Below, in pieces: positions 1 to 64,000 of a DNA stretch of 64,000 nucleotides. The DNA is from an uncultured Candidatus Saccharibacteria bacterium. Its GTDB lineage: Bacteria > Patescibacteriota > Minisyncoccia > Phycocordibacterales > PALSA-1337. Every line of letters starts with the position of its first letter. Within the stretch, counting starts at the first letter, position 1. The stretch spans positions 32,356-96,355 of the forward strand of contig CAYWKB010000001.1 of assembly GCA_964459225.1 (NCBI GenBank), in the 5' to 3' direction. A program made the position numbers and the translations under genes. A model generated the notes under the pieces. It did not search any database and was not told where the DNA came from. It saw nothing but the letters and a program-made list of their open reading frames with translations.

Positions 1-251
1 CAATTAGCACCTGAAGTATCTAATGTAGCTGGATAACTATTACATCTATCAAAATATAATTCTAAGGTTAATTGTAATTGTCCGATATCAGAAATCCTTT
101 TTGCATCTCTCGCTTTTATTTTAGATGATGCTAGATTAGCTGAAACTATTGCTGTTAGTATTCCTATAATTGCTATTACCACTAGTAACTCTATTAATGT
201 GAATGCTTTATTTTTAATTGATTTATTATTTTTCAAAAGTTCTTTTTTCAT
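1..251 (-). CDS. type IV pilin/pseudopilin, N-terminal part (runs off window edge); MKKELLKNNKSIKNKAFTLIELLVVIAIIGIL...
   Basis: Reverse-strand translation from ATG (rc of 249-251) gives classic prepilin leader + FTLIELLVVIAIIGIL N-methylation/TM segment; same 16-aa motif as pilin at 53000-53473. Confidence 0.75.
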   Translation of the reverse strand, partial: MKKELLKNNKSIKNKAFTLIELLVVIAIIGILTAIVSANLASSKIKARDAKRISDIGQLQLTLELYFDRCNSYPATLDTSGAN

Positions 252-288
252 TACTGTAATTATATCAAGGAAGCACATATAAACAAAA

Positions 289-7187: not shown

Positions 7188-7307
7188 CAATGGTATGATT
7201 TAGTCAAATATCATTTGAATTATAATAATATCAATTCATGAAGCACACTCCTCAACACAGACTTTGTCAATAGCACTTCATTCACTTTTTTACCTTATAA
7301 TAAACTC

Positions 7308-8711
7308 ATGTCATCACCAAAACACATACATATAGTCGGCATAGCCGGTGTAGCAACAAGCGCTATCGCTATTGCTTTTCATAAAACTGGATGGAAAGTT
7401 ACAGGTTCTGATAAGGGATTTTTCCCTCCTGTTTCAACCGAATTAGAAAAAAATAATATTTCATTTTATGCTGGTTGGCATCCTGAAAATATTGCAAATT
7501 TTGAAAAAAAGCCTGATCTCATAATGACCGGTGGAAGTGGAACAAGCGCATCAAATCCTGAAGTTATTTATGCAAAGGAAAATAATATTCCAGTGTATGA
7601 CTATCCTCGAATTCTTGAAAAATATTTCATTAAAAAGAACTCTATCGTGACTGTTGGAACCTGGGGGAAAACCACTTCTTCTTCCCTGCTTTCATTTATC
7701 TTAATTCAAGCAGGTATGGATCCATCGTATTTTACTGGAGGTCTTTCGCTTTCACATGACACTGGTGCTATTTCAGATAGCGATTGGAGTGTTGTTGAGG
7801 GTGATGAATATCAAGTCTCTATTTCTGATAAAAGACCGAAGTTTGTTTATTATGCACCAACACATTTGCTCCTGACATCTGTTTCTTGGGATCACGCTGA
7901 CCTTTACCCCACAGAAGCAGATTATTTTAAGGTTTTTTATGATTTAGTTGAAAAGCCTAATCTGATTGTTGCTTGTAATGATGACGCAGGTGTAAATACG
8001 GTAATCAAAAATAGTAAGAAAAAAATAATTACATACGGTAAAACTGAGGAAGCAAATTATTATTTTCATTCTATTTCACATAATAAGGACGGACTTAAAT
8101 TTAAAATTAAAAGTGCTTCAGAAGAATACGATATTCAAACACCAATGCTCGGACGTTTTAATGCCGAAAATATCACTGGGGTCTTTGCGATGGCAAAAGA
8201 AATCGGAATTCCAACAGACAAAATAATAAAAGCGATTTCTGATTTTAAAGGAATCAAAAGAAGATTTGAAAAAAGACTCGAAACGGATATTACTGTTTTT
8301 GATTGTCATGCACCCACAGCTGAAAAGGCAATGTCAATACTCGAAAGTCTCAGAGAGGTTTATAGCAAAAACATAATTGCAGTTTATGAACCAAATATAG
8401 GAGGTAGACAGAGAAGTTCGGCTTCAATGTATGACAATGCTTTCAAAAATGCAGATGTTGTAATAATTCCTCGCCTAAGTAAATTAAAAATAGATGAAAA
8501 AGCTACAGAACAACCAATGGAAGGAAATGAATTGGCTTCAGTTATTTCAAAAACACATTCTAATACAAAATTTATTGAAAACGATGAACTTGTTATAAAA
8601 ACATTAGTTGAAATTGCAAAAAAAGACGATGTAATCGTCTATCTTGGTTCGCACGGTTTTAGAGGAATGATCGAAGAAACTATTACTTCCCTTCGTCAAC
8701 AATTGAAGTAG
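7308..8711 (+). CDS. murC: UDP-N-acetylmuramate--L-alanine ligase MurC (Mur ligase family)
   Basis: IHIVGIAGVATSAIAIAF...TGSD N-terminal Rossmann, GTWGKTTSSSLL P-loop; TATAAT (7296-7301) 6 nt before ATG. Confidence 0.7.
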   Translation: MSSPKHIHIVGIAGVATSAIAIAFHKTGWKVTGSDKGFFPPVSTELEKNNISFYAGWHPENIANFEKKPDLIMTGGSGTSASNPEVIYAKENNIPVYDYPRILEKYFIKKNSIVTVGTWGKTTSSSLLSFILIQAGMDPSYFTGGLSLSHDTGAISDSDWSVVEGDEYQVSISDKRPKFVYYAPTHLLLTSVSWDHADLYPTEADYFKVFYDLVEKPNLIVACNDDAGVNTVIKNSKKKIITYGKTEEANYYFHSISHNKDGLKFKIKSASEEYDIQTPMLGRFNAENITGVFAMAKEIGIPTDKIIKAISDFKGIKRRFEKRLETDITVFDCHAPTAEKAMSILESLREVYSKNIIAVYEPNIGGRQRSSASMYDNAFKNADVVIIPRLSKLKIDEKATEQPMEGNELASVISKTHSNTKFIENDELVIKTLVEIAKKDDVIVYLGSHGFRGMIEETITSLRQQLK

Positions 8712-8847: not shown

Positions 8848-8904
8848 ATTTTTTATATTATTTAATTAATTCTAATATTACATAAAATGGTGTAATATAT
8901 CAAT

Positions 8905-9789: not shown

Positions 9790-11082
9790 TTAGAGATTTC
9801 TAATCGCTCTTACAAATACTTCCCCTCTATGTTTGCGTGAATTATAAATACCCACAGCATCAAATGCTGGACTAAATAATACAATGTCACCTTTGCTTGA
9901 ATTATTGAAAGCAATTGATACAGCATCATCTATATCAAATGCATGGAGTACATTGACTTCATTTATTTTGTCTATAACACTTCTATATCCAATGGTTCCA
10001 CTTCCTGGTAATACAATTATATTTTTTACATAATTTGATAATTCCTTTAATAAAAAATTATAGTCATGACCTGTATATGAACCACCTATTATAATAGAAA
10101 TATTTTTATTATTTGATAATGATTTTAATGCCAAAATAGTTGAATGTGGTGATATGGATGAAGAATCATTATAAAACTCTATACTATTAACCTTCTTTAT
10201 GGCTTCAATACGTCCTTTAAGACCCAAAAAGCCCTGTATAACCTCTTTTGCTATGTCTTTTGATACCTTGAACAATTCACTGGTTTGTAGGGCTAAAGAG
10301 GCATTTTCCCTGTCATAAGCAACCTTTCTATGTGAAATCCAATCACTTGGAATACTGCTACTTCTTGTCCTTAATATCTTTGCCCTAATTTCAATTTCAT
10401 CCTTAACTAAATCGATAACATTATCAGAGGCAATAATAAAGTTATTGTATGTTTGGAATTCTAATATTTTTGAAGAGATCTTTGATGTTAGTACTGCAAC
10501 ATGAGGACTAATACGAATTTCATGATAATAAGGTATGAGATTTTCTTGAATGCGAACAATAACAACATCGCCTTTTTTAATCTTTTTTAAGTGTGTGAGT
10601 ACGCCATTTGATGTATCTGAGTCAATAACAAAAAGCCCCTGATCCTCATAATCAACAAAAGACTTTTTAAGCATTTGATGTATCAAATGAGCAACTGTGC
10701 TTTTACCGTACACACCAAGAACACCGATGATTGTAACTGTTGGAACTAATTTAAAAAATAATATCTCAGCATATTCAATCTGTATACCTGCCTCAATTGC
10801 CTTTTTAAGGAAATGAGATTTTTTAGAGATATCAGAGGAAAGTATTATGAGATCCGAATCAAGTAAATCATTTTGATTTATCTTCCCATAACTAACTTTA
10901 TTCAAATTTAAATCAATTAAATCTGAGGCGATATCTTCTAACTTTGATTCACTTCTCATATCATACACAGAAACAATTGATTTATTTTTTGCAAGAAACT
11001 TTATATCAGCCAACATCTCTCCATGTGGACCTAGTCCTATTACTGATATTTTTTTATCTTTAAAAAAGTCTTTGTATATCAC
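9790..11082 (-). CDS. murD: UDP-N-acetylmuramoylalanine--D-glutamate ligase MurD (Mur ligase)
   Basis: KKISVIGLGPHG N-terminus, IIGVLGVYGKST P-loop, 430 aa. Confidence 0.65.
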   Translation of the reverse strand: MIYKDFFKDKKISVIGLGPHGEMLADIKFLAKNKSIVSVYDMRSESKLEDIASDLIDLNLNKVSYGKINQNDLLDSDLIILSSDISKKSHFLKKAIEAGIQIEYAEILFFKLVPTVTIIGVLGVYGKSTVAHLIHQMLKKSFVDYEDQGLFVIDSDTSNGVLTHLKKIKKGDVVIVRIQENLIPYYHEIRISPHVAVLTSKISSKILEFQTYNNFIIASDNVIDLVKDEIEIRAKILRTRSSSIPSDWISHRKVAYDRENASLALQTSELFKVSKDIAKEVIQGFLGLKGRIEAIKKVNSIEFYNDSSSISPHSTILALKSLSNNKNISIIIGGSYTGHDYNFLLKELSNYVKNIIVLPGSGTIGYRSVIDKINEVNVLHAFDIDDAVSIAFNNSSKGDIVLFSPAFDAVGIYNSRKHRGEVFVRAIRNL

Positions 11083-11089
11083 AATATCA

Positions 11090-11407
11090 TTATAGCAAAT
11101 CGTAATCTTTAATTGATTTTGGATTAACGATCAGACCTTTTACCTTTATTAATTCCTGTAAAAGCGCCTGCATTTTTATCGTTTCCTCATCGCTTATATT
11201 TTCAAACATAGCAAATGAAGCGAACTTTCTCAAGAAAAGATTATACACATCATTAAAATACTTTTCTAGCAAGTCTACATCATGTAATTCAATTTCTCCG
11301 TCTTTTATCATTTCTATATTATTTGGTCTTTTTACACCTTCAAAATATAGGAAATCATCAGACAAAATGCCCTGAATAATAGGTATATTCATTGAATATG
11401 TTTTCAT
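11090..11407 (-). CDS. hypothetical protein
   Basis: 105-aa ORF co-directional with murD/radC. Confidence 0.35.
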   Translation of the reverse strand: MKTYSMNIPIIQGILSDDFLYFEGVKRPNNIEMIKDGEIELHDVDLLEKYFNDVYNLFLRKFASFAMFENISDEETIKMQALLQELIKVKGLIVNPKSIKDYDLL

Positions 11408-11998: not shown

Positions 11999-12200
11999 TA
12001 ACTCTTGTAATGATAATGTTTCTGGACCGTATTTGATTATCTTTTCCCTTGGTTGCTCATCCCTTGGTATATCATGTATTTTTAGAACATACTCTTTATT
12101 GATATTATCTAATACTAAATCAGTATTTATATTTTTGTATTTAATAAATTTTTAATTTTATTTTAATAATTTATAGCCATATTAATTATTACTCAAACAA

Positions 12201-12224
12201 AAAATGCCCACAAGAGCATTTTTT
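12201..12224 (-). terminator. hairpin AAAATGC-ccacaaga-GCATTTT with flanking T/A runs; terminator of pyk
   Basis: inverted repeat read directly, 95 nt downstream of pyk stop. Confidence 0.5.
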
Positions 12225-12249
12225 GTAAAAATTTTATCAAAATTTTATC

Positions 12250-12261
12250 TTATGTGGATAA
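12250..12261. promoter_or_regulatory. 12-mer TTATGTGGATAA (rc TTATCCACATAA = perfect DnaA-box consensus TTATCCACA); copy 1 of 3; second near-box TGTGGGATAAC at 12289-12299
   Basis: exact 12-mer also at 43497-43508 and 53537-53548, all intergenic, same orientation. Confidence 0.5.
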
Positions 12262-12318
12262 CTTGTTTTGATTTATCAAAACAGAAATCCCCTTGTGGGA
12301 TAACTGGGATAAGTAATA

Positions 12319-15173: not shown

Positions 15174-15770
15174 TTAATTTCTATCTGGAATTACCCAACC
15201 TAAAAATTTAAAGTTATTTTGATAATTATATCTATCGTTAATATCAATTAAATTTAATTTTGACTTACTCTTACCTTTTGTAAGGTAATAACCATAAGAT
15301 GAATAACCGCCACCCACAAAAGGAAATATAAAATAATCACCTCTTCTGTCGTATGAACTAGAAATGGTAATTTGATCAGGGGAAGTTAATAAATCACTCA
15401 AAGTCATGATTTGAGCCTCTTTTAAAGATATTTCCCTACTTTCATTTTTTTGGGTGTCATGAAAAAAAATATGTTCTGAATATTTTTCGATAGAAACATC
15501 TTTATCATCTTTACCATTTTTATTCACTAATAATTTACCGTCAACAACAGAATATATTTCTTTTGAATAATCATTACAGTTATATGGATAGTGATTGTTA
15601 TTATCCATGCACATTGAATAAATAAAATTATAATTAGTCTTTATAAAAGCTGAAGGAATATAAGTTACACAAACAACTACAACAATTAGTATTATCGGTA
15701 AGGAAAAAGCCAAAAACAATGCGAAATTATCTTTTAAGATTTTTTTCATATTAACGATATTATAACACAA
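15174..15770 (-). CDS. membrane-anchored hypothetical protein
   Basis: 198 aa, N-terminal TM helix. Confidence 0.4.
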   Translation of the reverse strand: MCYNIVNMKKILKDNFALFLAFSLPIILIVVVVCVTYIPSAFIKTNYNFIYSMCMDNNNHYPYNCNDYSKEIYSVVDGKLLVNKNGKDDKDVSIEKYSEHIFFHDTQKNESREISLKEAQIMTLSDLLTSPDQITISSSYDRRGDYFIFPFVGGGYSSYGYYLTKGKSKSKLNLIDINDRYNYQNNFKFLGWVIPDRN

Positions 15771-18440: not shown

Positions 18441-18478
18441 AAAACAAAAACCACTCTTTTGGAGTGGCTTTTGTTAAT
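18441..18478. terminator. hairpin CCACTC-tttt-GGAGTGG flanked by A- and T-runs (bidirectional); ends 16S transcription unit
   Basis: read directly. Confidence 0.5.
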
Positions 18479-18669
18479 ATTAACTGTTCTTTATTTTGTT
18501 CCGTTCATCCGGTCAGTATCTCTATAGAGGATACCGACCTATGTCCTTTATCTCGCGGACTGAGTGTTCACTTTTAGGATGTAGAACAATAATCCTTGTT
18601 TATCTTACGATAAAAATCGACTCGGTTAGAAATATTTACGCCGAAGCAATAAATAATTTCGTATGATCA

Positions 18670-20289
18670 AATTGAAATAATCCACGAGCAGCTTCCGCTA
18701 CCCGTGCCTTGTTACGACTTACTCCCTGTCATTGAGCTTACCTTAGGCCACGACAAGCGTAGACTTCGGGTATTCCCAACTCCCTTGAGTTGACGGGCGG
18801 TGAGTACAAGACTTGAGAACGTATTCACCGCAGTATAGCTGACCTGCGATTACTAGCAATTCCAACTTCATGAGGTCGAGTTGCAGACCTCAATCCGAAC
18901 TGGGGATAGCTTTATAAGGATTTGCTCCATCTTTCGACTTTGCGTCCTGTTGTACTATCCATTGTATCACGTGTGTAGCCCAGGGTATAAGGGACATGCT
19001 GACCTGGCGTCATCCTCACCTTCCTCCCACGACGCAGCAAACAATTTTACAGAGGTTAGGAAAAATTGGTTCACATCACTTGCGTGCGTAGTAACTTTTT
19101 ATATCTCTTACGAGCTATAAAAAGTTCTCCGCACCGGATGTTCACTCAATTTTTCATCATCTCAACAAAATTCCGCACTGTGTCGTGGGCAGTCTCGCCT
19201 GACAAATATAACAGACAACGAGGGTTGCGTTCGTTACCCCACTGAAGGGAACAACTCAAGCCACGAACTGACGACGGCCATGCATCACCTGACTAACTGT
19301 CTTGCGACGCCAAAAGTTTCTTCTTGGCTTCAGCTAGATTAAACCCTGGTAAGGTTCTTCGTTTATCATCGAATTAAACCACATGATCCACTGCTTGTGC
19401 AAGTCCCCGTCTATTCCTTTGAGTTTTAACCTTGCGGTCGTACTACCCAGGCGCTTCTCTTAACGCGTTAGCTACGCCACTCAGAGGGTCGATACTCCGA
19501 ATAGCTAGAGAAGATCGTTTAGGGCGTGGACTACTGGGGTATCTAATCCCATTCGCGACCCACGCTTTCTTGTTTCAGTGTCAGGAGTGCTCTAGTCTGC
19601 TGCCTTCGCTTTTGGTGTTCCCCATAATATCAACGCATTTTACCGCTACACTATGAGTTCCGCAGACCTCTCGCATCCTCTAGTCATACCGTTTCCCTTG
19701 CATGCCCCCGGTTAAGCCGAAGAATTTAACAAGAGACTAATATAACCACCTACACAACCTTTACGCCCAATGATTCCGGATAACGCTTGAGGCACTCGTA
19801 TTACCGCTGCTGCTGGCACGAGTTTAGCAACCTCTTATTCGCCAAGTACTATCAATAAACTTTCTCCCTGGCAAAAGAACTTTACATGCCTAAGCACTTC
19901 ATCGTTCACGCGGCGTCGCTCCGTCAGACTTTCGTCCATTGCGGAAGATTCTCGACTGCGGCCACCCGTAGGTGTATGGACCGTGTCTCAGTTCCATCGG
20001 TGGGGGTCACCCTCTCAGGTCCCCTAGGCGTCATAGCCTTGGTGAGCTTTTACCTCACCAACTAGCTGATACCGAGCAGGCTCATCTTGAAGCGATAAAT
20101 CTTTAGTCTTTCGACACCATCAAGTATTAACTCATCTTTCGATGAGGTATTCCTGACTTCAAGGTTGATACCTACTTATTACTACCTCGTCTGCCACTGA
20201 CTATATATTGCTATACAGCCCGTTTGACTTGCATGCCTTATCCACGCCGCCAGCGTTCATCCTGAGCTAGGATCAAACTCTTAACTAAA
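18670..20289 (-). rRNA. rrs: 16S rRNA (about 1620 nt) with ~140-nt AT-rich expansion in helix 40 (plus coords ~19030-19175) and non-canonical 3' tail lacking CCUCC
   Basis: rc matches AGAGTTTGATCCTAGCTCAG (20262-20281), GTATTACCGCTGCTGCTGGCAC, GGACTACTGGGGTATCTAATCC, ACGGGCGGTGAGTACAAG, CCTTGTTACGACTT; flanking leader/trailer complementarity (18481-18507 vs 20290-20330). Confidence 0.9.
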
Positions 20290-20535
20290 ATGAACGGAAC
20301 AAAATAGAAAACAGTAATACTTAAATTATAGCTTTTATCTTGATCTTGTTTTAGATGATATAGAGTTCAAACTTCGCTCCCGTTAATGTGAATAAATTAA
20401 CTTGGAATCATTTTAAAATAAACATTAAACTTGCACGCATTCAATATCATTTGAATTCGAATACGTTCTTTAATGCACAACTTACTAAATTGTCGAAAAA
20501 CTCATTAAATTCGCCTTACTTAAGGCGTAGGTAGT

Positions 20536-20563
20536 ATTCTACTCGAAGTAATTTTAAAGTCAA
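20536..20563 (-). promoter_or_regulatory. candidate 16S promoter TTGACT-16nt-TAGAAT on minus strand, ~250 nt upstream of mature 5' end
   Basis: rc of 20558-20563 = TTGACT, rc of 20536-20541 = TAGAAT. Confidence 0.4.
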
Positions 20564-22233: not shown

Positions 22234-23622
22234 TTATTTATTTAAATTATTAGTAATTGTTCTAGTAAATCCGTTACTTACCAAAAATGTTGATATTTTA
22301 TTGGTCTTTTTTGGTGCTACAGAGTATAAGAATACTCTAGAAGCAGTAATAGCTGTAAACATACTTACAAGCACTCCGATTAGGAATACTAGTGCAAATC
22401 CAGTAATTACTGATGTACTACCAAAATAATAGAGAATTAAGCCCGTAATAATACTTGATGTATTTGAATCACGTATTGAAAGCCATGCTCTAGCAAAGCC
22501 TTCGTGCATCGCTTCACTTATTCCCTTTCCTCTTCTTAATTCCTCTTTCATTCTTTCAAAGATAAGCACATTTGCATCCACCGCCATTCCGATTGAAAGT
22601 ATAAACCCTGCTATTCCTGCAGCCGTTAGAGTAACTGGTAGCATTTTAAATACAAACAACATTATAAGTGTATAAACAGCAAGTGATACAACAGCAATAA
22701 AGCCAGGTAGTCTGTACCAGATTATCAAAAATATACCTATAACAATTAGTGATATTACTCCAGCTCTAATTCCCCCATTTAAAGCACTTTGTCCAAGTGA
22801 TGCTCCCACAGTTTGAGTTGAAATTAATTCGATAGGTACTGGCAATGCACCGTAATTTAGATTTCTTACTAATAACTTTGCCTCATCAATATTAAAGGCA
22901 CCAGATATAACCGCCTTACCATCTCTTATTTCATCCCTGACAGTTGGTAATGATATAGGACTTCCATCTAAGAATATTCCTACAATATTACCCACATTTT
23001 CCTTTGTGACTTTTGCAAACAAATTTCTACCTTCTGAATTAAAACTTAATGATACTGAAGGCTCACCCGTTGTTTGATTGAATTCGAGTGTTGCTCTTTC
23101 AAGCATTCTACCTGTAATGCCAGTTGGCTTAAACAATTTCATCATTTCCTTTGTCTTTTCCTCATCAGTAGCACTACTATCTTTATATTTCGTATTAAAC
23201 GCTTCTGAATCTTCTTTATTTAAAACCTGAAATTCAAGAACTGGTGTCTGACCTATCATACTTATTGCCTCATCAATGTTTGTAACACCAGGTAATTCGA
23301 CTATAAGCTTTTCTTGAGCTTCTTTTGTACCAAGAACACCCGCTTGTTCAACTTGCACAATTGGTTCACTTACACCAAAAACATTCACTCTTTTTTCAAT
23401 AACATCTCTTAATGCCTGCATTGAAACCCTAACCTCAGAAGAGGCTATCTTTGAAACATCAGCTTTATACACCAAATGTGTACCGCCATTTAAATCCAAT
23501 CCTAGTTTAAAGGGTCTACTTAGATTTGATTCTGTATTAACTATTTGTGAATAATATGTAAACCAACCAATGACTAATGAAATAATAATCAGAAATACGG
23601 CAATAATTCTTGTTTTAAGCAT
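22234..23622 (-). CDS. secD: protein-export membrane protein SecD
   Basis: LGLDLNGGTHLVYKAD, 462 aa. Confidence 0.85.
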   Translation of the reverse strand: MLKTRIIAVFLIIISLVIGWFTYYSQIVNTESNLSRPFKLGLDLNGGTHLVYKADVSKIASSEVRVSMQALRDVIEKRVNVFGVSEPIVQVEQAGVLGTKEAQEKLIVELPGVTNIDEAISMIGQTPVLEFQVLNKEDSEAFNTKYKDSSATDEEKTKEMMKLFKPTGITGRMLERATLEFNQTTGEPSVSLSFNSEGRNLFAKVTKENVGNIVGIFLDGSPISLPTVRDEIRDGKAVISGAFNIDEAKLLVRNLNYGALPVPIELISTQTVGASLGQSALNGGIRAGVISLIVIGIFLIIWYRLPGFIAVVSLAVYTLIMLFVFKMLPVTLTAAGIAGFILSIGMAVDANVLIFERMKEELRRGKGISEAMHEGFARAWLSIRDSNTSSIITGLILYYFGSTSVITGFALVFLIGVLVSMFTAITASRVFLYSVAPKKTNKISTFLVSNGFTRTITNNLNK

Positions 23623-23667
23623 AATAGGTCTATTATAGAGATTTAATTGCTTTTTGCAATAATAAAG

Positions 23668-25047
23668 CTATCTACCGACAAATGTAACAAGTACTTTTAA
23701 TGTTCTAAGTGCAATCTTTAAATCAAGGGAAAGTGATCTATGTTTAATATAATAAAGGTCATAAGATAGCTTATTTGCTGTCTCGACTATATCTATACCA
23801 TGATGAGGATGCATTTCATGATAAATTTGTGCCCAACCAGAAAGTCCAGGTTTAATACTATGACGAATAGTGTAATTTGGTATTTGTTCAGTGTATTTAT
23901 TTACTGCATCTCTGAATTCTGGTCTAGGGCCAATGAGTGATATATCACCTTTAATAACATTCCATAATTGTGGTAGTTCATCTATTCTTGTTTTTCTTAA
24001 AAATGAACCAACAACTGTGACTTTATTTTCCTTTTGACCCCATTTACCATCATCATTTGCTATATTCATAGTTCTGAACTTAACAATATTTATCATTTTA
24101 TCGTATTGTCCTACTCTAGTTTGATAGCTGAATATTTCACCATCATCCTCAATTTTAATTGCAATGATAACAAACGGATAAATAACAAGCGAAATAATAC
24201 CCAAAACAGAGGCAATAATAATATCCATTAGCCTTTTAATACCATCATAAACGAGCTTTGGTGCCATTGATGACATATGTTCAATAAACCAAGTATTACC
24301 AATCATTGAAACTGGTATACGATCAAAAATATTTTCATATATTTTACCTATTCCATAAAACAAAACGCCTTGTAGAGCAATTCCATAAAGTGAAGGAATA
24401 ATCGCACTTACCCTTTTATCATTCGTATCTAGAACAACTAAACTTATATCATATTGTGAAATTGTGCTTTTAATTTCCTTTAATAATTCCTGACTATTAT
24501 CATTTGGTATAATTGTTTTAATAAAATTAATATCATATCTAGAATTACTATTAACTTCATTTTCTAATTCTTTTGACTCATTTGTATTTGCTATCAAAAT
24601 GGCTTTTTGAACCTTATCCCCTTTTTTATCTGAACTAAATTTATAAACAAAAAATATTCTCCAACAATAAATCAGAATGAGTGATAGTACTAAGAAAAGA
24701 AATAGAACAAATTTAGGGGCAATAGAAAAATTTGGAATAAAATAAAAGAAAGCGATACCAACAATAGTATTTACTAATTGTACATTTAGTAGTGTTAGGG
24801 GTAATTTATTTCTTAATAAAATAGTATGCTTTTCGTATAAACCTGCAATAAAATACACCAAGATAAATGCAATAAACAAAATTGAAAAAGGAATGATATG
24901 TAGCTCTAAAAGATTTAGAGAAGGAAATTCACCATATCTAAGTACCAAGGTCAGTACAAGTGACGCTAATAACACCAATATATCCCCAATAAACAGTATT
25001 ATATGGTCTTTTCGGTGAAATCTATTCATATGCGATATAATACACAA
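23668..25047 (-). CDS. polyprenyl-phosphate sugar phosphotransferase (bacterial sugar transferase, WbaP/WcaJ-like)
   Basis: KRLMDIIIASVLG...FRTM...IDELPQLWNVIKGDISLIGPRPE. Confidence 0.8.
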   Translation of the reverse strand: MCIISHMNRFHRKDHIILFIGDILVLLASLVLTLVLRYGEFPSLNLLELHIIPFSILFIAFILVYFIAGLYEKHTILLRNKLPLTLLNVQLVNTIVGIAFFYFIPNFSIAPKFVLFLFLVLSLILIYCWRIFFVYKFSSDKKGDKVQKAILIANTNESKELENEVNSNSRYDINFIKTIIPNDNSQELLKEIKSTISQYDISLVVLDTNDKRVSAIIPSLYGIALQGVLFYGIGKIYENIFDRIPVSMIGNTWFIEHMSSMAPKLVYDGIKRLMDIIIASVLGIISLVIYPFVIIAIKIEDDGEIFSYQTRVGQYDKMINIVKFRTMNIANDDGKWGQKENKVTVVGSFLRKTRIDELPQLWNVIKGDISLIGPRPEFRDAVNKYTEQIPNYTIRHSIKPGLSGWAQIYHEMHPHHGIDIVETANKLSYDLYYIKHRSLSLDLKIALRTLKVLVTFVGR

Positions 25048-25075
25048 AAATCAAGAAAAATGGTACTCTTTTAGT

Positions 25076-26245
25076 ATGAAGGTGCTTTTACTTATCACCA
25101 AATCAAATATGGGTGGCGCACAGAGATATGTATACGATATCGCCACAAATTTACCTAAAGACATCTATGAAGTAGAGGTTATGGCGGGAGGTAATGGGCC
25201 ACTTATTGAAAGCCTGCAATCCGCTGGAATAAAAGCTTCAGGAAATTTACCTGTAGGTAGAGATATAAATCTCATTCAAGATATAAAATCTTTTTTTGAA
25301 TTATTTAAAATAATAAGAGAAAAAAAGCCAGATGTATTACATGTAAATAGTTCTAAAATAGGCGGCATCGGAGCATTTATTGGTAGATTACTTGGAATTA
25401 AAAACATAATATTTACCGCTCATGGTTTTGCATTCAATGAAGACAGAAGTCGTCTTTCTAAATTAATTATTAAGTTCTTCCATTGGTTAACTATTTTCCT
25501 TTCTCATAAAACTATATTAGTTTCAGAAGCCTTAAAATATCAAATAGCAGATTGGCCATACATAGAAGGCAAATTATATGTAATTCGTAATGGTTTAGAT
25601 AGCAAAGCAGTATATTCTAAAATAAATGCTAGGTATGAATTAGGGAAAATCAATAAAGACTTTGATAAAATAATTAAAGAAAATAAAAACACAATTATAA
25701 TAGGCAGTGTCGGTGAATTGCATCACATAAAAGGCTATGAATACGCTATTAGAGCTATTTCAAACTTAATAAAAGATATTAGAAAGAGTAGCCCCGATAA
25801 AAAAATAATCTATACAATATTTGGTGAAGGTGAAGACAGAATTAACATAGAAAAAGAAATACATTATCAAGAATTAAAAGACTCAGTAATATTATTTGGT
25901 AATATCAAAGACGCATTTCAATATATGAAGGCATTTGATATTTACCTTATGCCATCCATATCAGAAGGATTACCATATGCCCTTCTTGAGGCGGGTATTG
26001 TTGGTCTTCCGGTTGTTGCTAGTGCAGTAGGTGGAATACCTGAAGTTGTGGAGGATATGAAAACTGGTGTATTAATACAATCTAAAAAACCAAAAGAAAT
26101 TCAGCATGCATTAGAATTCTACATATCACACAAAAAGATTCAGGGTGATCATGCAAAATTGTTAATGACTAATATTCAGAACAATTTTTCTATTTCAAAA
26201 ATGCTTGAAAATACAATCAAAGTATACAATACTAAGCACCAATAA
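25076..26245 (+). CDS. glycosyltransferase family 4 (GT-B)
   Basis: EGLPYALLEAGIVGLPVVASAVGGIPEVV motif. Confidence 0.75.
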   Translation: MKVLLLITKSNMGGAQRYVYDIATNLPKDIYEVEVMAGGNGPLIESLQSAGIKASGNLPVGRDINLIQDIKSFFELFKIIREKKPDVLHVNSSKIGGIGAFIGRLLGIKNIIFTAHGFAFNEDRSRLSKLIIKFFHWLTIFLSHKTILVSEALKYQIADWPYIEGKLYVIRNGLDSKAVYSKINARYELGKINKDFDKIIKENKNTIIIGSVGELHHIKGYEYAIRAISNLIKDIRKSSPDKKIIYTIFGEGEDRINIEKEIHYQELKDSVILFGNIKDAFQYMKAFDIYLMPSISEGLPYALLEAGIVGLPVVASAVGGIPEVVEDMKTGVLIQSKKPKEIQHALEFYISHKKIQGDHAKLLMTNIQNNFSISKMLENTIKVYNTKHQ

Positions 26246-30206: not shown

Positions 30207-30321
30207 CTTTGTACTGGCGACTAGCTACTTTCCCCTTCATATGAGTATCATCGCCGCAACTGCGTTTCACTTCCGTGTTCGGAATGGGAACGGGTGTTTC
30301 CACAGCGCCAAATCACCAGAA
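30207..30321 (-). rRNA. rrf: 5S rRNA
   Basis: rc contains GCGTTTCACTTCCGTGTTCGGAATGGGAACGGGTGTTTCC matching conserved 5S core. Confidence 0.8.
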
Positions 30322-31942: not shown

Positions 31943-32194
<252 letters not shown>

Positions 32195-32997: not shown

Positions 32998-33029
<32 letters not shown>

Positions 33030-51554: not shown

Positions 51555-52202
51555 TTAATCTTGTGATGATTGAAGTAGCATAATGTCTCCTTCTTTGCCT
51601 TCCAAATCCTTTTTCTTTAAAGTTAATTTGGCTTCTGGAGCTGGATTTTCACCTGCCTCCTTCAAAAATACTTTCAAAGCATCCTTTGAGCCGATTTCGC
51701 CATAATGCATTGGTATAATTATCTTAGGTTGCAAAGACACTGCAAACTTATATGCACGCGCAGGATCAAGTACTCCCTCACCACCAATAGGTACAAAAAG
51801 TATATCAATCTCATCAAGCGCCTCTATTGTTTCTGCTTTTAATTCAGTGACATTTATTGCACCTAGGAAGCAAATATTCATATTTTCAAGAGAAACAGTA
51901 TAAATAGTATTTATCGCATCACCATCACCCTTTATATCGTATCCTGACACTGATGGTAGACCTTTTATAAACACACCACCAACTTCGTATTCACCTGGGC
52001 CCTTTATAACAAAGGGCTTTTTGTCGCCATGAGTTACTTGATCAATGCCATTAAAATCCTCGTGATATCTGCTTATAAGCACAATATCAGCACCAAAACG
52101 CTTTGGACTTAGCTTTGACTCCTTTGAAATAGGATTAAAAGCTAGTGTTGTATCACCAAATTGCACCTTTAAAAATTCAGCTCCGAAATATGTAATAATC
52201 AT
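51555..52202 (-). CDS. metallo-beta-lactamase-fold hydrolase (UlaG/UPF0173-like)
   Basis: 215 aa, MBL-like beta-sandwich pattern. Confidence 0.45.
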   Translation of the reverse strand: MIITYFGAEFLKVQFGDTTLAFNPISKESKLSPKRFGADIVLISRYHEDFNGIDQVTHGDKKPFVIKGPGEYEVGGVFIKGLPSVSGYDIKGDGDAINTIYTVSLENMNICFLGAINVTELKAETIEALDEIDILFVPIGGEGVLDPARAYKFAVSLQPKIIIPMHYGEIGSKDALKVFLKEAGENPAPEAKLTLKKKDLEGKEGDIMLLQSSQD

Positions 52203-52250
52203 AATACTGTCATTTTAGCATAAAAATATGTTATCGTTAAACATATCAAT

Positions 52251-53559: not shown

Positions 53560-54768
53560 TTATTGTGCACTTGCAACGTTGTATATAGGTATAAGCACAG
53601 ATGCAAGAAGCACTGCTACTCCAGCACCGAGCATTACTATCATGGCAGGCTCTATAAGATCAACTAGAGCATCCACAGCAGTAGTTACCTCTCTTGAGTA
53701 AAACCTAGCTAATGTTTTTAATATATTTCCCAACTCTCCTGACTCTTCACCCACTTTCATCATTTGAATCATAATACCTGGTATTTCACCATTACCTGAA
53801 AGTGCCTCAGATACTGGCTTTCCTGCCTTTACAGCCTCAACTGATTCGCTTAATATCTTATTGTATATACTGTTGTTTATAACTGATGATGTAAGCTCTA
53901 ATGCTCTTATCATAGGGATTCCTGCAGCAAGCATTGTGTTCATATTGTCTGACAATCTTGACCAATATAATTTCCTAAATAGATTACCAATATATGGTAC
54001 TGCTAATTTAAATTTATCGAACATCAATGCACCTACTGGAGTTTTGATGTATTTATAAAGGAAAAATCCTCCAATAATAGCAACTCCAAGCACTATAAAA
54101 CCATAAGACACAAAGAAATTACTAATACCCAAAACTATCTGTGTGTATATCGGTATCTCTTGTCCTGAATCAACCAAGATAGAGCTTATCTTTGGTATAA
54201 CCATAGTGAACATAAGTATCATAACTGTAATAAATGTAAAGATAACGAATGCCGGATATATAAGCGCACTTTTTGCTTTTGAAACTAGCTCATATGTTCG
54301 GTCAAGATAATCTGCAAGATATGTAAATGTCTCATTTAACTTTCCAGATTCTTCACCTGCCTTTACCATACTAACGTAAAATTCTGAAAAGACTTTTGGA
54401 TGCTTCCCTAATGCTGCAGATATTTGACTACCTGATTGCAGGTCATCTGAAATTGTTATTAGTTTTGCACCTAGTACTTTGTTTTCACTTTCACTTGCCA
54501 AAAGTCTAAATATTCTAAGAGCTGAAACTTGTGCTTCAAAGAGTGTTGCTAATTGTCTTGAAAGTATCACAACATCCTTGTTTGATACTCTATCGAGCCA
54601 ATTGATATTCATATTCAGAAAGCCCTTTGCTTTGTCTGCTTCAACAATTGATGAAACAACTAGCCCCCTGCGTTGAAGTGATGCTATGGCAATATCTACA
54701 TTTGCCGCATCTATTGACCCTGACTTTATTGAACCATCTTGTTCTATTGTTTTATAATTAAAAAGCAT
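53560..54768 (-). CDS. pilC: type IV pilus assembly platform protein PilC (GspF family)
   Basis: 402 aa, duplicated GspF domain pattern. Confidence 0.85.
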   Translation of the reverse strand: MLFNYKTIEQDGSIKSGSIDAANVDIAIASLQRRGLVVSSIVEADKAKGFLNMNINWLDRVSNKDVVILSRQLATLFEAQVSALRIFRLLASESENKVLGAKLITISDDLQSGSQISAALGKHPKVFSEFYVSMVKAGEESGKLNETFTYLADYLDRTYELVSKAKSALIYPAFVIFTFITVMILMFTMVIPKISSILVDSGQEIPIYTQIVLGISNFFVSYGFIVLGVAIIGGFFLYKYIKTPVGALMFDKFKLAVPYIGNLFRKLYWSRLSDNMNTMLAAGIPMIRALELTSSVINNSIYNKILSESVEAVKAGKPVSEALSGNGEIPGIMIQMMKVGEESGELGNILKTLARFYSREVTTAVDALVDLIEPAMIVMLGAGVAVLLASVLIPIYNVASAQ

Positions 54769-54783
54769 AAATAAATTATATCA

Positions 54784-55859: not shown

Positions 55860-56258
55860 TTATTTACTTTTTTTCAAAGAATCGTATATCTTCATAACCT
55901 CACCCATAACTTCCGACGGAACCGTAGTTGCCTTTATTATATACCCATCTGCATTTAATTTCTTTGCTTTTGCAATATCATCTGGTAATCCCTGATTTGT
56001 AAGCATTATTATTACAGTATTTTTGATTAATTCTTCCTTTCTAATCGTACCTAAAAGCTCTATACCATTGATACCTGGTATCACCACATCTATAAGCATT
56101 ATATCTGGTGACAATCCATCCCTTAGCATTTTTAATGCTGTTTCCCCATCCTGTGCTGTATGAATATCAAAATTATTTTTTGAAAACTTAATAATATACA
56201 TATCAAGCAAAAACTTATCGTCATCTACAAATAGTATTGAAAGTTTTTTGTTTTCCAT
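55860..56258 (-). CDS. stand-alone response-regulator receiver domain (CheY/PilH-like)
   Basis: ILFVDDD...LIDVVIPGINGIEL... Confidence 0.75.
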   Translation of the reverse strand: MENKKLSILFVDDDKFLLDMYIIKFSKNNFDIHTAQDGETALKMLRDGLSPDIMLIDVVIPGINGIELLGTIRKEELIKNTVIIMLTNQGLPDDIAKAKKLNADGYIIKATTVPSEVMGEVMKIYDSLKKSK

Positions 56259-56276
56259 AATGTATTGATTATATCA

Positions 56277-59628: not shown

Positions 59629-60771
59629 TTATTCTATTTCAGACAATCGTCTTAATGCACACCCTATCGCAACCGCAAATTCTGGACCCGCTTCACTGAA
59701 TTGTTCATTCAAAAATGCTGGAGTTTCTAGTTTACTAAATGGATTTGCATAGATTATTTCGGTTTGAAAGCTTATCTTTGCTAAGTCAACAAAACCTTTT
59801 AACAATACACCTCCTCCTGTAAGTATTACTTTACTGATATTTTTAGAGTACTTTTTTTGATATGCAAACATTGTTGTATTTGCCTCATAAAAAATATAAT
59901 CCAAATTAACAGTTATGATTTCAGTTAATTCTTTGTATTCTGGGCCTCCTTTTAGACCGTACGCCCTCTTCATACTTTCAGCTTCATTTACACTTATGCT
60001 TAATGATTTTGAAATGGCCAAAGTAATATCTTGTGCACCACGATTGATAATATGTGATGATTTCAATAAACCTCTTTCAATAATGTATAGCTTAGTTGAT
60101 CTCGCCCCCATATCCACAACCATCATTGCATTTACGCCAGGCTCAACAACTGCGCGTATTGAACTAAATATTTCAATTTCGAAAAAAGATGTTTGAAGTC
60201 CTGTTGATGTAACAATTGATTGATAGTTATTTACATACTCATTGTGAATAGCAACAACCAAAACATCCTGTGATTGATTTACTGCTTTATTATTTTCATC
60301 CCTTTTTTCAATATCAGGATCCTCTGGTGGATAATTGTCTTCACGTGGAATAATAGAATAATCAAGCATTACCTCACTCATTGGAACTGGAATATATTTG
60401 CGCGCTTCAAGAGCGATGACTTCTGGTAATTGCTTTTCAGGTACTGGCGGAATAGTTATAAAACTAATTAGACTAGATGATAGTGGCAATGCCATACCAG
60501 ATTCAGTTGTTGTAGTCTTTGCTTCACGCAAAATATCTTTTAATGCCTCAATAATCTTGTCATTAGTGAGACTTGTTGATCTACCCACCTCGATTCCAGC
60601 ATAAGGACCTAGGGCTAGTTCACCATAAGTTTCAAGTACTGCCTTGCCCCTTTTCTTTTTGATTTGTACAACTTTTATAGCAGATGAACCAATATCAATA
60701 CCCAAAACGCTTTGACTTTTTTTAGAAAACAATGACATCACACTGCCAAATAAGTCTTTTATAGAATTCAT
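59629..60771 (-). CDS. pilM: type IV pilus assembly protein PilM (actin-like ATPase)
   Basis: VLGIDIGSSAIKVVQI N-terminus; TATAAT 8 nt before ATG. Confidence 0.8.
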   Translation of the reverse strand: MNSIKDLFGSVMSLFSKKSQSVLGIDIGSSAIKVVQIKKKRGKAVLETYGELALGPYAGIEVGRSTSLTNDKIIEALKDILREAKTTTTESGMALPLSSSLISFITIPPVPEKQLPEVIALEARKYIPVPMSEVMLDYSIIPREDNYPPEDPDIEKRDENNKAVNQSQDVLVVAIHNEYVNNYQSIVTSTGLQTSFFEIEIFSSIRAVVEPGVNAMMVVDMGARSTKLYIIERGLLKSSHIINRGAQDITLAISKSLSISVNEAESMKRAYGLKGGPEYKELTEIITVNLDYIFYEANTTMFAYQKKYSKNISKVILTGGGVLLKGFVDLAKISFQTEIIYANPFSKLETPAFLNEQFSEAGPEFAVAIGCALRRLSEIE

Positions 60772-60804
60772 AAAATATATTATAGCATAATTATATAGTG
60801 TAAA

Positions 60805-61443: not shown

Positions 61444-61711
61444 CCTTTTTCTTATTCCAAATATCTACCACAAAATACAAATATATAAGCTCAAGAATTC
61501 CCATAGTATTTATTAGAAGTAGTGCAATAAACCATCCCTTTTCATTTCTTTTTGCTGCATGCCATAATGCATAACCCTTAAGTATAATAGACGCAATAGT
61601 TAATAAGAAAAATAGAAAAGCTCCTAATGCAAATAGACCAAAACCCATACCAAGCATTGGTAATCCAAAACCAAATTCATGAGCACCAGCAATAAAATTA
61701 TTTGTCATCAT
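61427..61711 (-). CDS. small membrane protein, hypothetical
   Basis: 94 aa, 2-3 TM. Confidence 0.35.
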   Translation of the reverse strand: MMTNNFIAGAHEFGFGLPMLGMGFGLFALGAFLFFLLTIASIILKGYALWHAAKRNEKGWFIALLLINTMGILELIYLYFVVDIWNKKKVNEPK

Positions 61712-61754
61712 ATTTAACTATTATATCACAAATTAACATTACCCATCACAGACC

Positions 61755-61940: not shown

Positions 61941-62342
61941 CTAGGCTTTTTCAAACATCCAGCCGAGTCGTGTACCGAAGTTCTCCCTTACCGAGAGTTC
62001 GTCGAGACGATCCTTGAAGCTGAAAGTCCTTTCGCGCGGAATGTAGTCGCGGTTCATCCCGCTGATGCACATCACTCGAGATTGCAGAGGGCCGAGTCTT
62101 TCGAAGACATCGTGACCATTGAGACATTTGCAGCGACCTGTAGTGAACCGGCAATCGCAGAAGTCGTGGTCAAGCAGGATAAGGACAGGATCAACTTCCA
62201 GAATCTGCCTTACGATTTCATCAGCAGAAGTATCCCATTTCGGAGTGATCGTCAGGACAACTTCGAATCCGTTCTTCTGACAGGCATCCGCGAGTGGTTT
62301 TTGATATCTGATTACATCTTCGATAAGAACTGTTTTTTGCAC
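61941..62342 (-). CDS. hypothetical protein, possibly receiver-domain-like with Cys-rich insert (CDCRFTTGRCKC); GTG start preceded by perfect SD AAGGAGGTG; GC ~52%
   Basis: 133-aa ORF; rc upstream = ctgAAAGGAGGTGtctcGTG; hairpin terminator AAGCCTAG...CTAGGCTT overlaps stop (61911-61951). Confidence 0.5.
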   Translation of the reverse strand: MQKTVLIEDVIRYQKPLADACQKNGFEVVLTITPKWDTSADEIVRQILEVDPVLILLDHDFCDCRFTTGRCKCLNGHDVFERLGPLQSRVMCISGMNRDYIPRERTFSFKDRLDELSVRENFGTRLGWMFEKA

Positions 62343-62423
62343 GAGACACCTCCTTTCAGGGTTTTATTGGGTTTGAGTTCTAGTTGAATAGTAACACGTA
62401 TTTATAGTTTCGTAAAGCTTCGG

Positions 62424-62577: not shown

Positions 62578-62638
62578 ATACCTTCATATACTATACAAAA
62601 TTAAGATCTTTTACAAACTCACATGATATAATATCGAA

Positions 62639-64000
62639 ATGAAAGAAAAGTTGATTTCTCTTAAACAAATATTTAATGGCGACATAGATACAAGCGAAGG
62701 CACATTACTCGAATATTCTCATGATGCAAGTCTATTTGAAATTAAACCAAAAGTAGTTGTATTTCCGAAAGACAGTAGCGATATCAAAAATCTAGTCAAA
62801 TGGGTAAATGAAAATAACAGCAAAGACAATCCCCTATCCATAACCGCAAGATGTGCAGGGACATGCATGACTGGTGGATCAATTGGTAATTCAATAATTG
62901 TTGATTTTACTAGGTATATGAATAATATTATTGAAATAAAAGATGACTATGCAATAGCCATGCCCGGTTGCTTGTATAGAGATTTTGATATTGAAACTAA
63001 AAAGCATGGTAAATACATGCCAGCATACACAGCATCGAGAGATATAAATGCAATAGGCGGAATGGTGGGCAATAATAGTGGTGGCGAAAAATCTATTAAA
63101 TACGGTAAAACAGAAAATTATATTAATTCATTAAAAGTAGTTTTGAGTGATGCGAATGAATATGAAATTAAACCTTTAAGTCTTAGTGAATTAGAAGAAA
63201 AAATAAAATCAGATAATTTTGAATCTTCAATTTACAAAAAGATTTTTGAATTAATTCAAAATAATTATGATGCGATAATGTCAGCAAAACCAAATGTATC
63301 CAAAAACTCTGCTGGATATTATCTTTGGAATATTTATGACAAAGAAAATAATAAATTTGATTTATGTAAATTGATTGTTGGCTCACAGGGAACATTAGGT
63401 ATTGTTACTGAAATAAATTTCAAAATTATCCCCTTTGAAGCATGTTCAAATATTATGGCTGTCTTTTTGCCTTCAATTGATCATGTTAGTAAACTTGTAA
63501 ATGAAATACTTCCCTATAAACCAGACAGTCTCGAAACATATGATGACAAGAGTATGATACTGGCAGTTAAATTTTTCTATGATTTTATTGAGTATTTAGG
63601 TATTTGGGGAGCAATTAAATTAGGTTTTCAATTTATTCCAGAAACTTACATGCTCGCAATCGGTGGCGTTCCAAAATTAATTTTAATGATTGAATTTACA
63701 GGCAATACAGAATCAGAAGTTAAAAATAAATTAATACAAGTAGAAAAGCATATAAAACCTTTTGGTTTCCATACTCATATAGCCCATTCAAGTGCGGAAG
63801 CAAATAAATACTGGAAAATACGCCATGAAAGTTTTAATTTATTGAGGAAGCATAGTAATGGAAAAAGAACAGCCCCATTTATTGATGACATAATAGTTAA
63901 ACCAGAATATTTACCAAAATTCCTTCCACAAATCAAAAAACTATTAGATGAATACAAATTAGATTATACGGTACAGGGGCATTTGGGTAACGGTAACTTT
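62639..64000 (+). CDS. FAD-binding oxidoreductase (FAD_binding_4/GlcD-D-lactate dehydrogenase-like), 5' part; continues beyond window
   Basis: VVVFPKDSSDIKNLVKWVNEN...ITARCAGTCMTGGSI FAD-binding motif; extended -10 TGaTATAAT ends 6 nt before ATG; absent from ORF track because it runs off the edge. Confidence 0.65.
   Translation, partial: MKEKLISLKQIFNGDIDTSEGTLLEYSHDASLFEIKPKVVVFPKDSSDIKNLVKWVNENNSKDNPLSITARCAGTCMTGGSIGNSIIVDFTRYMNNIIEIKDDYAIAMPGCLYRDFDIETKKHGKYMPAYTASRDINAIGGMVGNNSGGEKSIKYGKTENYINSLKVVLSDANEYEIKPLSLSELEEKIKSDNFESSIYKKIFELIQNNYDAIMSAKPNVSKNSAGYYLWNIYDKENNKFDLCKLIVGSQGTLGIVTEINFKIIPFEACSNIMAVFLPSIDHVSKLVNEILPYKPDSLETYDDKSMILAVKFFYDFIEYLGIWGAIKLGFQFIPETYMLAIGGVPKLILMIEFTGNTESEVKNKLIQVEKHIKPFGFHTHIAHSSAEANKYWKIRHESFNLLRKHSNGKRTAPFIDDIIVKPEYLPKFLPQIKKLLDEYKLDYTVQGHLGNGNF

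Follow-up and report, generated by a model that had tools for sequence, protein, structure and literature searches.

In a 64,000-nt stretch of contig CAYWKB010000001.1 (assembly GCA_964459225.1, positions 32,356 to 96,355; hereafter the window, whose own coordinates are used below), we found that the single visible 16S rRNA gene lacks the anti-Shine-Dalgarno (anti-SD) sequence CCUCC, that SD sites occur before genes no more often than expected by chance, and that a large share of the genes carry a TATAAT-like -10 box ending mostly 6 nt, and up to 9 nt, before the start codon. These observations are confirmed and conserved across the clade. We consider it probable, at roughly three chances in four, that translation in this organism is initiated independently of SD pairing, with leaderless mRNAs for ~40-47% of genes and with coupling or AU-rich, SD-less leaders for the rest. 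Leaderless translation had been the original prediction for this sequence, and loss of the anti-SD, absence of SD sites and the placement of -10 boxes at the distance of a transcription start site (TSS) all support it for that ~40-47% of genes.

The 16S rRNA gene lies on the minus strand at 18670..20288 (1619 nt) and matches the bacterial small subunit (SSU) rRNA model over its full length (Rfam RF00177 SSU_rRNA_bacteria, positions 1-1533, 1349.9 bits). The original prediction, which cited positions 18670-18700 (where, the gene being on the minus strand, the 16S 3' end appears as its reverse complement), described an intact helix 45 followed by a tail without an anti-SD, and both parts were borne out. 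Helix 45 with its GGAA loop (18683..18706, minus strand) reads CACGGGUAGC-GGAA-GCUGCUCGUG, in which 10/10 pairs are canonical or G-U. In the adjoining 3' tail (18670..18682, minus strand), GAUUAUUUCAAUU replaces GAUCACCUCCUUU, and CCUCC is absent. In the Rfam alignment the gene ends in GGAUUAUUUCAAUU where the bacterial model has GGAUCACCUCCUUU; when the 3' end was re-aligned, GGAUUAUUUCAAUU fell without gaps and with maximal posterior probability on model positions 1520-1533 (GGAUcACCUCCUUu). The change from CACCUCC to UAUUUCA thus comprises four C-to-U substitutions and one C-to-A substitution. This alignment had been proposed as a check on a terminal insertion that might hide CCUCC, and displacement of the anti-SD by such an insertion is ruled out, as CCTCC has zero occurrences in the 230-nt trailer scanned from the 16S end to the terminator. 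For searches, helix 45 and a tail of the window type fit the pattern GTCGTAACAAGG-N10-GGAA-N9-GGAT followed by any tail.

The organism, an uncultured bacterium of small genome that has a GC content of 31% in the window and uses the standard genetic code, belongs with the Parcubacteria/Paceibacteria within the candidate phyla radiation (CPR), to judge by the names of SecF homologues and by features of its rRNA genes. For SecF (21324-22232), hundreds of homologues share 69-79% identity, and the named ones are Candidatus Paceibacterota or Patescibacteria; homologues of MreB also carry the names Candidatus Paceibacterota, Parcubacteria or Patescibacteria. Unlinked rRNA genes with insertions are typical of the CPR. 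The 16S gene of the window is ~100 nt longer than those of its relatives and is unlinked to the 23S-5S pair, which lies 10 kb off (23S at 30428-34196; 5S at 30212-30320). The 23S gene itself extends ~840 nt beyond the bacterial model length, with no same-strand open reading frame (ORF) of at least 80 aa inside it.

The tail is shared by relatives. The conserved gene order secD-secF-small ORF-16S gave access to the 16S genes of five of them (L005, L006, L007, L008 and L009), which are 88-94% identical to each other and to that of the window at GC contents of 0.31-0.45. GGAUUAUUUCAA is identical in all five tails and is followed by (A/U)U; in L007 the tail is located after an intron with an ORF. 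This L007 gene (11609-13975) has an insertion of ~850 nt near its 3' end, which on visual inspection we took for an intron whose ORF is homing-endonuclease-like. A second lineage, L001 (a Parcubacteria genome; CAVRXN010000002.1, from metagenome-assembled genome MFD02248.bin.2.6, GC 51%; positions 1-260), has a different tail that likewise lacks the anti-SD, GGAUCAAUUAAACU, in which the GAUCA motif is kept; next to it, a response-regulator gene has TGGTATAAT 6 nt upstream of its ATG. MreB relatives of L001 are named Liptonbacteria, Ryanbacteria and Parcubacteria, and this route led to two MreB-anchored loci (L011 and L012), which carry no 16S gene, lack conserved synteny and served only for counts of upstream motifs. 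An AT-rich locus with a diverged 16S-like 3' end (L002) was judged by eye to be organelle-like and was not used.

To the changed tail corresponds an absence of SD enrichment. We scored SD cores (GGAG, GAGG or AGGA) within -20..-1 of a set of 56 non-overlapping ORFs of at least 80 aa in the window, each begun at its first ATG. Cores were present before 2/56 genes, compared to 5.7 expected from random genomic 20-mers, and before 8/67 independently called genes of four relatives, compared to 8.3 expected. There was no SD enrichment in any gene class of the window or in the four relatives, where cores are at or below chance, and neither hallmark of canonical SD/anti-SD initiation (CCUCC in the tail; SD sites enriched 5-10 nt upstream of starts) was found. 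The original prediction, that the genes checked had no purine-rich SD, agrees with the counts for the whole set and holds individually for pyk and recA. We also considered that a replacement SD had co-evolved with the new tail, and rejected this possibility: -20..-1 regions paired with the organism's own tail no more favourably in duplex energy than shuffles did (z = -1.65), and 5-mers complementary to the tail, outside TATAAT, were not enriched.

GGAGG is common within coding sequence and stands before an ORF start just once in the window, as AAGGAGGTG at 62347-62355 (minus strand), followed by 5 nt and a GTG. Thus, the earlier statement that the only perfect SD precedes a GC-rich foreign ORF at 61941-62342 stands, in so far as this is the sole GGAGG before an ORF start. 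The ORF with its SD (61941..62355, minus strand) has no Pfam match, and its N-terminus resembles a receiver domain. It lies inside a 650-nt island of ~50% GC (61800-62480) on the 3' side of a tRNA-Ser gene; the island is probably the remnant of an integrated foreign element, and its SD-led ORF is probably foreign. An imperfect direct repeat, gacccgagtgcctaggta / gacccaagtacctaggca, is present in the island. The adjacent tRNA-Ser (62488-62577, minus strand) has the anticodon ACU according to ARAGORN, in a 7-nt loop, TTACTAA. The usual anticodon for AGY codons is GCU, and an A34 in this position, modified or unmodified, is unusual in bacteria.

The second half of the evidence comes from the -10 boxes. 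We scored a start-proximal hexamer as a match to TATAAT in at least 5/6 positions, with A2 and T6 obligatory, that ends 5-9 nt before the start codon. Such hexamers were found at 21/56 window genes, compared to 5.0% of 2280 other ATGs in the window (P = 1e-13) and to 5.4% of 185 first ATGs of spurious ORFs, which displayed no peak (P = 5e-13). Similarly, 27/67 genes of the four relatives had a hexamer, compared to 3.4% of their other ATGs (P = 3e-22). When the scored interval was shifted further upstream in the same regions, just 2-10 window genes gave a match. The mode of the spacing was 6 nt, with 15 matches at exactly 6 nt in the relatives; the two relatives of 45% GC, in which 8/12 matches were at exactly 6 nt, gave a cleaner signal than the 31%-GC window. 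The scan of upstream regions for SD motifs and -10-like hexamers that had been proposed as a check was thereby carried out in the window and its relatives, with SD cores at or below chance and hexamers strongly enriched. The hexamers are not an artefact of taking the first ATG after a stop codon (the TAA within TATAAT); that explanation was rejected, because peaks at 6, 7 and 9 nt put this TAA out of frame and because spurious ORFs reach just 5.4%.

These hexamers are, by their sequence context, classical extended -10 promoters (TRTGn). In 58 sites from five genomes aligned on the hexamer, T (55%) and G (52%) prevail at -15/-14, a purine is found at -16 in 69%, and the region upstream is T-rich; a -35 element is weakly enriched (mean best match 2.83, compared to 2.59 +/- 0.12 in shuffles). 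An unbiased search for enriched 5-mers returned as its top words ATAAT (32 genes vs 4.8) and TATAA (25 genes vs 4.0). Conversely, TGNTAHAAT occurs at 29 sites on both strands of the window, with an ATG or GTG 6-9 nt downstream at 10 of them and an actual gene start at 9 of these 10; two of the nine genes, those for a type IV pilin and for a FAD (flavin adenine dinucleotide) oxidase, run off the ends of the window. In orthologues from up to seven genomes the spacing of 6, 7 or 9 nt is kept while the sequence of the spacer drifts. The TRTGn extension, the unbiased 5-mers and this conserved spacing across diverging spacers argue that the hexamers belong to promoters and are not a ribosome-binding motif.

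Among the genes with candidate leaderless starts, murC (7296..7310, plus strand) has TATAAT at 7296-7301, then 6 nt and ATG, exactly as had been stated, and its Pfam Mur_ligase domain begins at residue 6. A murD-like gene (11080..11097, minus strand) has TGCTATAAT, 6 nt and GTG, with the Pfam N-terminal domain beginning at residue 10 of the GTG-started protein; TG/GGnTATAAT stands 6-7 nt before this conserved GTG in three genomes (the window, L005 and L006). Pfam domain boundaries are consistent with the proposed starts. A GT4 glycosyltransferase gene (25060..25078, plus strand) has TGGTACTCT, 6 nt and ATG, and a Bac_transf gene (25027..25045, minus strand) has TGTGTATTAT, 7 nt and ATG. The former has TGGTAC(T/C)(C/G)T at 6 nt in five genomes (the window and L007-L010), with ATG or GTG at the same site, and the latter TGTGTATKAT or TGGTAGTAT at 7 nt in five (the window, L005, L007, L008 and L009). 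The 258-aa gene upstream of ftsW likewise keeps 6 nt in five genomes, with TATACT in the window and TGnTA(T/C)AAT in four relatives, and genes for a sigma factor, an amidase and a histidine kinase have their boxes at 6, 6 and 8 nt, respectively, in both L007 and L008. In secD (23620..23637, minus strand; TATAAT, 9 nt, ATG), for which 8-9 nt had correctly been given, orthologues have spacings of 9, 9, 9 and 6 nt. Divergent pairs are in places only 27-66 nt apart (e.g., 2795/2823 and 60771/60805), which leaves no room for a promoter plus a leader.

Further boxes were found at genes for a 191-aa protein (15747..15767, minus strand; TGTTATAAT, 9 nt, ATG), a 215-aa protein (52200..52220, minus strand; TGCTAAAAT, 9 nt, ATG) and a 94-aa protein (61709..61728, minus strand; TGATATAAT, 8 nt, ATG), and at the type IV pilin gene cut by the start of the window (249..267, minus strand; TGATATAAT, 7 nt, ATG), whose product has FTLIELLVV at its N-terminus. 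The FAD-oxidase-like gene that runs off the other end (62624..62641, plus strand; start at 62639) has the extended TGnTATAAT at 6 nt as originally described, in the form TGATATAAT. In other cases the original prediction, which placed a TATAAT-like hexamer 6-9 nt before all the well-supported genes it named, needs amending: it is right as a statistical pattern (21/56 genes), and wrong for pyk and recA, which have no start-proximal box. The hexamer of the pyridoxal phosphate enzyme is where it was reported (8893-8898) and matches in only 4/6 positions (TAATAT); that of rsmI, reported at exactly 6 nt, is ambiguous between TATTAT at 6 nt and GTGTAGTAT at 11 nt; and the 8-9 nt given for pilM and comF are in fact 7 nt (60769..60787, minus strand; TGCTATAAT, ATG) and 5 nt (TATAGT).

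Several boxes are internal to the pilus cluster (53560-60771, minus strand), in which the order is pilM, pilN-like, pilO, an unnamed ORF, pilB, response regulator, pilT and pilC. The pilC gene (54766..54783, minus strand; TGATATAAT, 6 nt, ATG) has its promoter inside the cluster, within the 15 nt that separate it from pilT; the response regulator gene (56256..56276, minus strand; TGATATAAT, 9 nt, ATG) and pilN also have start-proximal promoters of their own, such that all three lie within gaps of 15-18 nt. As gaps of 11-18 nt often hold a full TGnTATAAT, the cluster may consist of several leaderless transcription units and not form one operon.

To find out how far this pattern extends, we split the 56 window genes into four classes under slightly relaxed criteria (box at 5-10 nt). 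A box was present at 25/56 genes; 7/56 are tightly coupled to the upstream gene (gap of 1-4 nt), and 0/7 of these have a box; 4/56 have a short gap and no box; and 20/56 follow a long gap or are divergent and lack a start-proximal box. The 15-mers upstream of starts are 81-86% A+T and G-poor in every class, compared to 67% A+T in the whole window. Since ~40-47% of genes are covered, leaderless initiation would be a major route and not the sole one, and other SD-independent routes are needed.

Our inferred scheme for where transcripts begin and how ribosomes bind them is as follows. Having lost the anti-SD from the single visible 16S gene, ribosomes would be unable to select starts by SD pairing. 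An extended -10 element (TRTGnTATAAT) with a weak or absent -35 would drive ~40-47% of genes, namely most first genes of transcription units and several operon-internal ones. RNA polymerase usually starts ~7 nt downstream of the -10 box; a hexamer ending 6-9 nt, mostly 6 nt, before the start codon would then set the 5' end of the mRNA at, or 1-3 nt before, the A of the AUG. Binding of such leaderless mRNAs involves the 5'-terminal AUG and the initiator tRNA, with no pairing between rRNA and mRNA. The other genes would rely on stop/start coupling across gaps of 1-4 nt, or on initiation at short, G-poor leaders of 81% A+U that are presumably unstructured.

Several points weigh against this scheme. 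The zero-length leaders are deduced from sequence, and where the spacing is 9 nt transcription may begin 1-3 nt ahead of the AUG. Chance alone yields weak hexamers (e.g., AATAAT and TAAAAT) at 31% GC, and the 21-25 genes assigned a box in the window therefore include some false ones. The 20 long-gap or divergent genes without a box include pyk, recA and the ORFs adjacent to the rRNA genes, and secD in L008 and L009 has an SD-less leader of 26-27 nt, such that leadered, SD-independent initiation must matter too. The sample is limited (64 kb from the window genome, 12-21 kb from each relative), and all the 16S tails compared come from lineages without the anti-SD.

The likeliest of the other explanations is that the promoters are real and lie close to starts because the genome is compact, with transcripts that have very short or ordinary AU-rich leaders, while 30S subunits bind unstructured A/U-rich RNA as in Flavobacteriia and Mycoplasma and leaderless initiation is not the main route. 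The 20/56 genes without a start-proximal box and the A+T-rich, G-poor upstream regions of every class fit this explanation, as do strong TGnTATAAT elements 22-43 nt upstream of secD in L008 and L009 and of several window genes (e.g., 29214-30128 and 34602-35294), which imply SD-less leaders, and spacings of 8-10 nt, which would give leaders of 1-4 nt. However, compaction alone predicts a broad spread of distances, whereas the observed spacing is conserved and the spacer sequence free to vary, and the sharp mode at exactly 6 nt (15/67 genes in the relatives) sets the A of the ATG at the usual +1. We regard compaction as an unlikely explanation.

We took seriously, and think very improbable, the possibility that the hexamer works as a motif in the RNA, with UAUAAU 6-9 nt before the AUG pairing to the AUUAU of the changed tail (GGAUUAUUUC), for example on read-through transcripts. 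Complementarity does exist: ATAAT can pair with AUUAU, the tail complement AATTGAAATAATCC contains TGAAATAAT, which matches TGnTATAAT at 8/9 positions, 6-9 nt is also the classical distance from SD to AUG, and several sites in intra-cluster gaps of 11-20 nt (pilC, response regulator, pilN) would be present on read-through mRNA. The details of the sites nevertheless follow a promoter and not the tail. In 84% of sites the hexamer begins with T, which against the tail would make a U-U mismatch; pairing with GG would call for C in the two bases that follow, and these are C in just 10% of sites; positions -16/-17 follow the promoter TRTG; and TGAAA, GAAAT and AATCC, the tail-complement 5-mers outside TATAAT, are not enriched. 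Moreover, the duplex energies of upstream regions with the tail do not surpass those of shuffles, as noted above, the motif is absent from 7/7 tightly coupled genes, five A-U pairs are weak, and a TGnTATAAT that acts as a DNA promoter anyway falls outside the transcript it starts.

We give almost no weight to the idea that the tail is not what the ribosome carries (an inactive 16S copy with a CCUCC copy elsewhere, or another mature 3' end or pairing sequence): only 64 kb of the genome is in view, and the trailer, inside its processing helix, is unusually conserved and has CCUCU in a hairpin at 18511-18539, but six genomes share the tail at a single, syntenic locus whose promoter, leader and trailer are conserved, the trailer is without CCTCC, its CCUCU is base-paired in a covariation-supported stem, and no SD enrichment exists for any anti-SD to read.

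Parts of this picture have precedents. Loss of the anti-SD in a subgroup of Parcubacteria is already published: Tsurumaki et al. (2022; RNA 28:1041, PMC9297842) detected CCTCCT in only 48% of Parcubacteria, and noted that the lineages lacking it overlap the group without uL1, a functional association they called unclear. Their subgroup is of the same bacterial group as the window and likewise has a 16S 3' end without CCUCCU; it was described by the missing motif only, with no account of how genes are initiated and no mention of "leaderless", whereas we find a promoter-at-start architecture and a conserved tail and trailer. In the 64-kb window, rplJ-rplL (36039-36954; region 36039-39910, minus strand) is preceded by a gene for a 922-aa protein of unknown function and not by rplK-rplA, a context that fits the uL1-lacking group and is no proof that uL1 is absent.

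Anti-SD loss is known outside the CPR as well, in 128 taxa that include Flavobacteriia, Mycoplasma and Carsonella and in which SDs are missing too (Amin et al. 2018; PMC6107228). Flavobacteriia (Chryseobacterium, Elizabethkingia, Blattabacterium), Mycoplasma and Carsonella resemble the window in having a tail without CCUCC, no SD enrichment and no new SD/anti-SD pair. A 2012 study by Lim is reportedly another source on bacteria without an anti-SD. In the analyses consulted, these genomes fall in the class with a non-SD motif in leadered mRNAs (group B of GeneMarkS-2 for the FCB group) and not in that with a promoter box at TSS distance. In this Bacteroidetes-type group the anti-SD is mostly retained, and the same A-rich, non-SD motif stands before all genes, including operon-internal ones; in the window, by contrast, the anti-SD is absent and the motif is TATAAT with a TG extension, absent from the 7 coupled genes. 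The general A/U-richness upstream of genes is common to both.

The placement of the boxes is that of group C of GeneMarkS-2, an established class of leaderless annotation, chiefly of Actinobacteria and Deinococcus, that has a Pribnow box 6-8 nt ahead of the start as its defining mark and was compared with differential RNA sequencing data, with an SD model used for internal genes (10.1101/193490). In M. tuberculosis and D. deserti a box so placed is the hallmark of leaderless genes (10.1101/193490), and differential RNA sequencing has validated this placement as leaderless transcription. A -10 box ~6-8 nt upstream of first-gene starts is what we find in the window and its relatives. The leaderless-rich Actinobacteria (M. 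tuberculosis, Streptomyces) and Deinococcus (10.1101/193490; PMC4633059) share with the window this box placement and the use of both ATG and GTG starts. Unlike the window, they keep a canonical anti-SD and SD sites at operon-internal or leadered genes; the second model of group C has no counterpart here, as SD cores are at or below chance in all classes, and several genes within clusters have a start-proximal promoter of their own. Mammalian mitochondria, whose SSU rRNA is without an anti-SD (PMC10582724), and Haloferax volcanii (PMC3986360) also have largely leaderless mRNAs and no SD use; these are an organelle and a member of another domain, with other promoters, polymerases and initiation factors, and Haloferax keeps its anti-SD.

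How the tail became free to change may be linked to Era, which binds GAUCACCUCC and has been lost in most CPR (review, PMC10582724); its loss would have relaxed one constraint on the GAUCACCUCC tail, a suggestion that is plausible from the literature only. In addition, counts at the two MreB-anchored loci hint that leaderless architecture is widespread in Parcubacteria and may predate loss of the anti-SD. L012, from another lineage of Paceibacterota, has a box at 8/18 genes, and L011 (Liptonbacteria) is in a mixed state that includes some good SDs. Our literature search, to which most subscription journals were closed, such that it is no proof of absence, returned no paper on leaderless architecture in Parcubacteria, Patescibacteria, the candidate phyla radiation or Paceibacteria. 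Each ingredient is known singly, and what appears new is the combination: full loss of the anti-SD, promoters at the start of ~40-47% of genes, no internal SDs, and promoters within clusters.

If our interpretation is correct, the clade would represent a free-standing lineage of bacteria that has wholly abandoned the SD/anti-SD interaction and in which leaderless mRNAs, often seen as an ancestral mode of initiation, carry a large share of expression. Extra promoters within clusters would replace the SD sites of some operon-internal genes. It would also provide the initiation mechanism left unaddressed by Tsurumaki et al. (2022), and would make the clade a natural test case for the constraints on the 16S 3' tail, such as Era binding and 3' processing. 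For the annotation of CPR genomes, gene callers that score SDs would misplace starts, and a promoter-box model with no SD model for internal genes would be apt.

The 16S transcription unit has conserved features beyond the tail. Its promoter, TTGACT-N16-TAGAAT (20536..20563, minus strand), is kept in all five genomes compared, and an intrinsic terminator (18441..18468, minus strand; a GC hairpin followed by a T run) closes the unit, with its position and not its sequence kept in relatives. Between the 16S gene and this terminator is a conserved 3' trailer (18483..18669, minus strand; in relatives L005 13852-14050, L006 13033-13225, L007 13976-14170 and L008 13730-13925), which consists of ~155 nt of structured RNA with hairpins and then the 3' strand of a processing helix (18483-18510). 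The 5' strand of this pre-16S helix (20289..20315, minus strand) directly adjoins the mature 5' end: in RNAduplex, the 27-30 nt immediately before that end form pairs with trailer positions ~+152-163 to ~+190, with free energies of -39 to -51 kcal/mol in five genomes and compensatory changes in L006 and L008. As the leader pairs with the trailer from ~+152-163 on, the trailer is predicted to lie inside a helix-closed unit. The conserved promoter and this covarying leader-trailer helix indicate that the 16S gene of the window is functional.

Within the trailer, the hairpins covary, the apex of one being invariant (CCUCUAUAGAG) and the loops of two being of GNRA type, and RNAalifold gave 7 pairs with compensatory changes; the hairpin at 18511-18539 reads GGUCGGUAUCCUCUAUAGAGAUACUGACC. 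The domain is 82-92% identical between genomes, compared to 88-94% for the 16S itself, and no Rfam family matched it, with only terminator-driven matches below threshold. It is quite unlikely that the trailer (18511-18669) stays on the mature SSU rRNA as an extra 3' domain at the site of the anti-SD tail, where it might act in start selection or assembly. An 11-nt palindrome, TTCAA(T/A)TTGAA, spans the predicted mature 16S 3' end (18664-18676, minus strand) and is in the same place in L005-L009, that is, in six genomes; it could be a processing-site signal or a coincidence.

Two individual genes also drew our attention. The radC ORF of the window (11420-12318, minus strand) is 192 aa, compared to 236-249 aa in relatives, comes after 320 nt free of genes and, unlike its orthologues, has no start-proximal promoter; it may have undergone an N-terminal truncation or a frameshift, or have a different start. 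Likewise, RecA (47158-47290, plus strand), which has no start-proximal -10 box, has a Lys/Glu-rich N-terminal extension of ~45 aa, with the Pfam RecA domain beginning at residue 47, and its true start may be internal.

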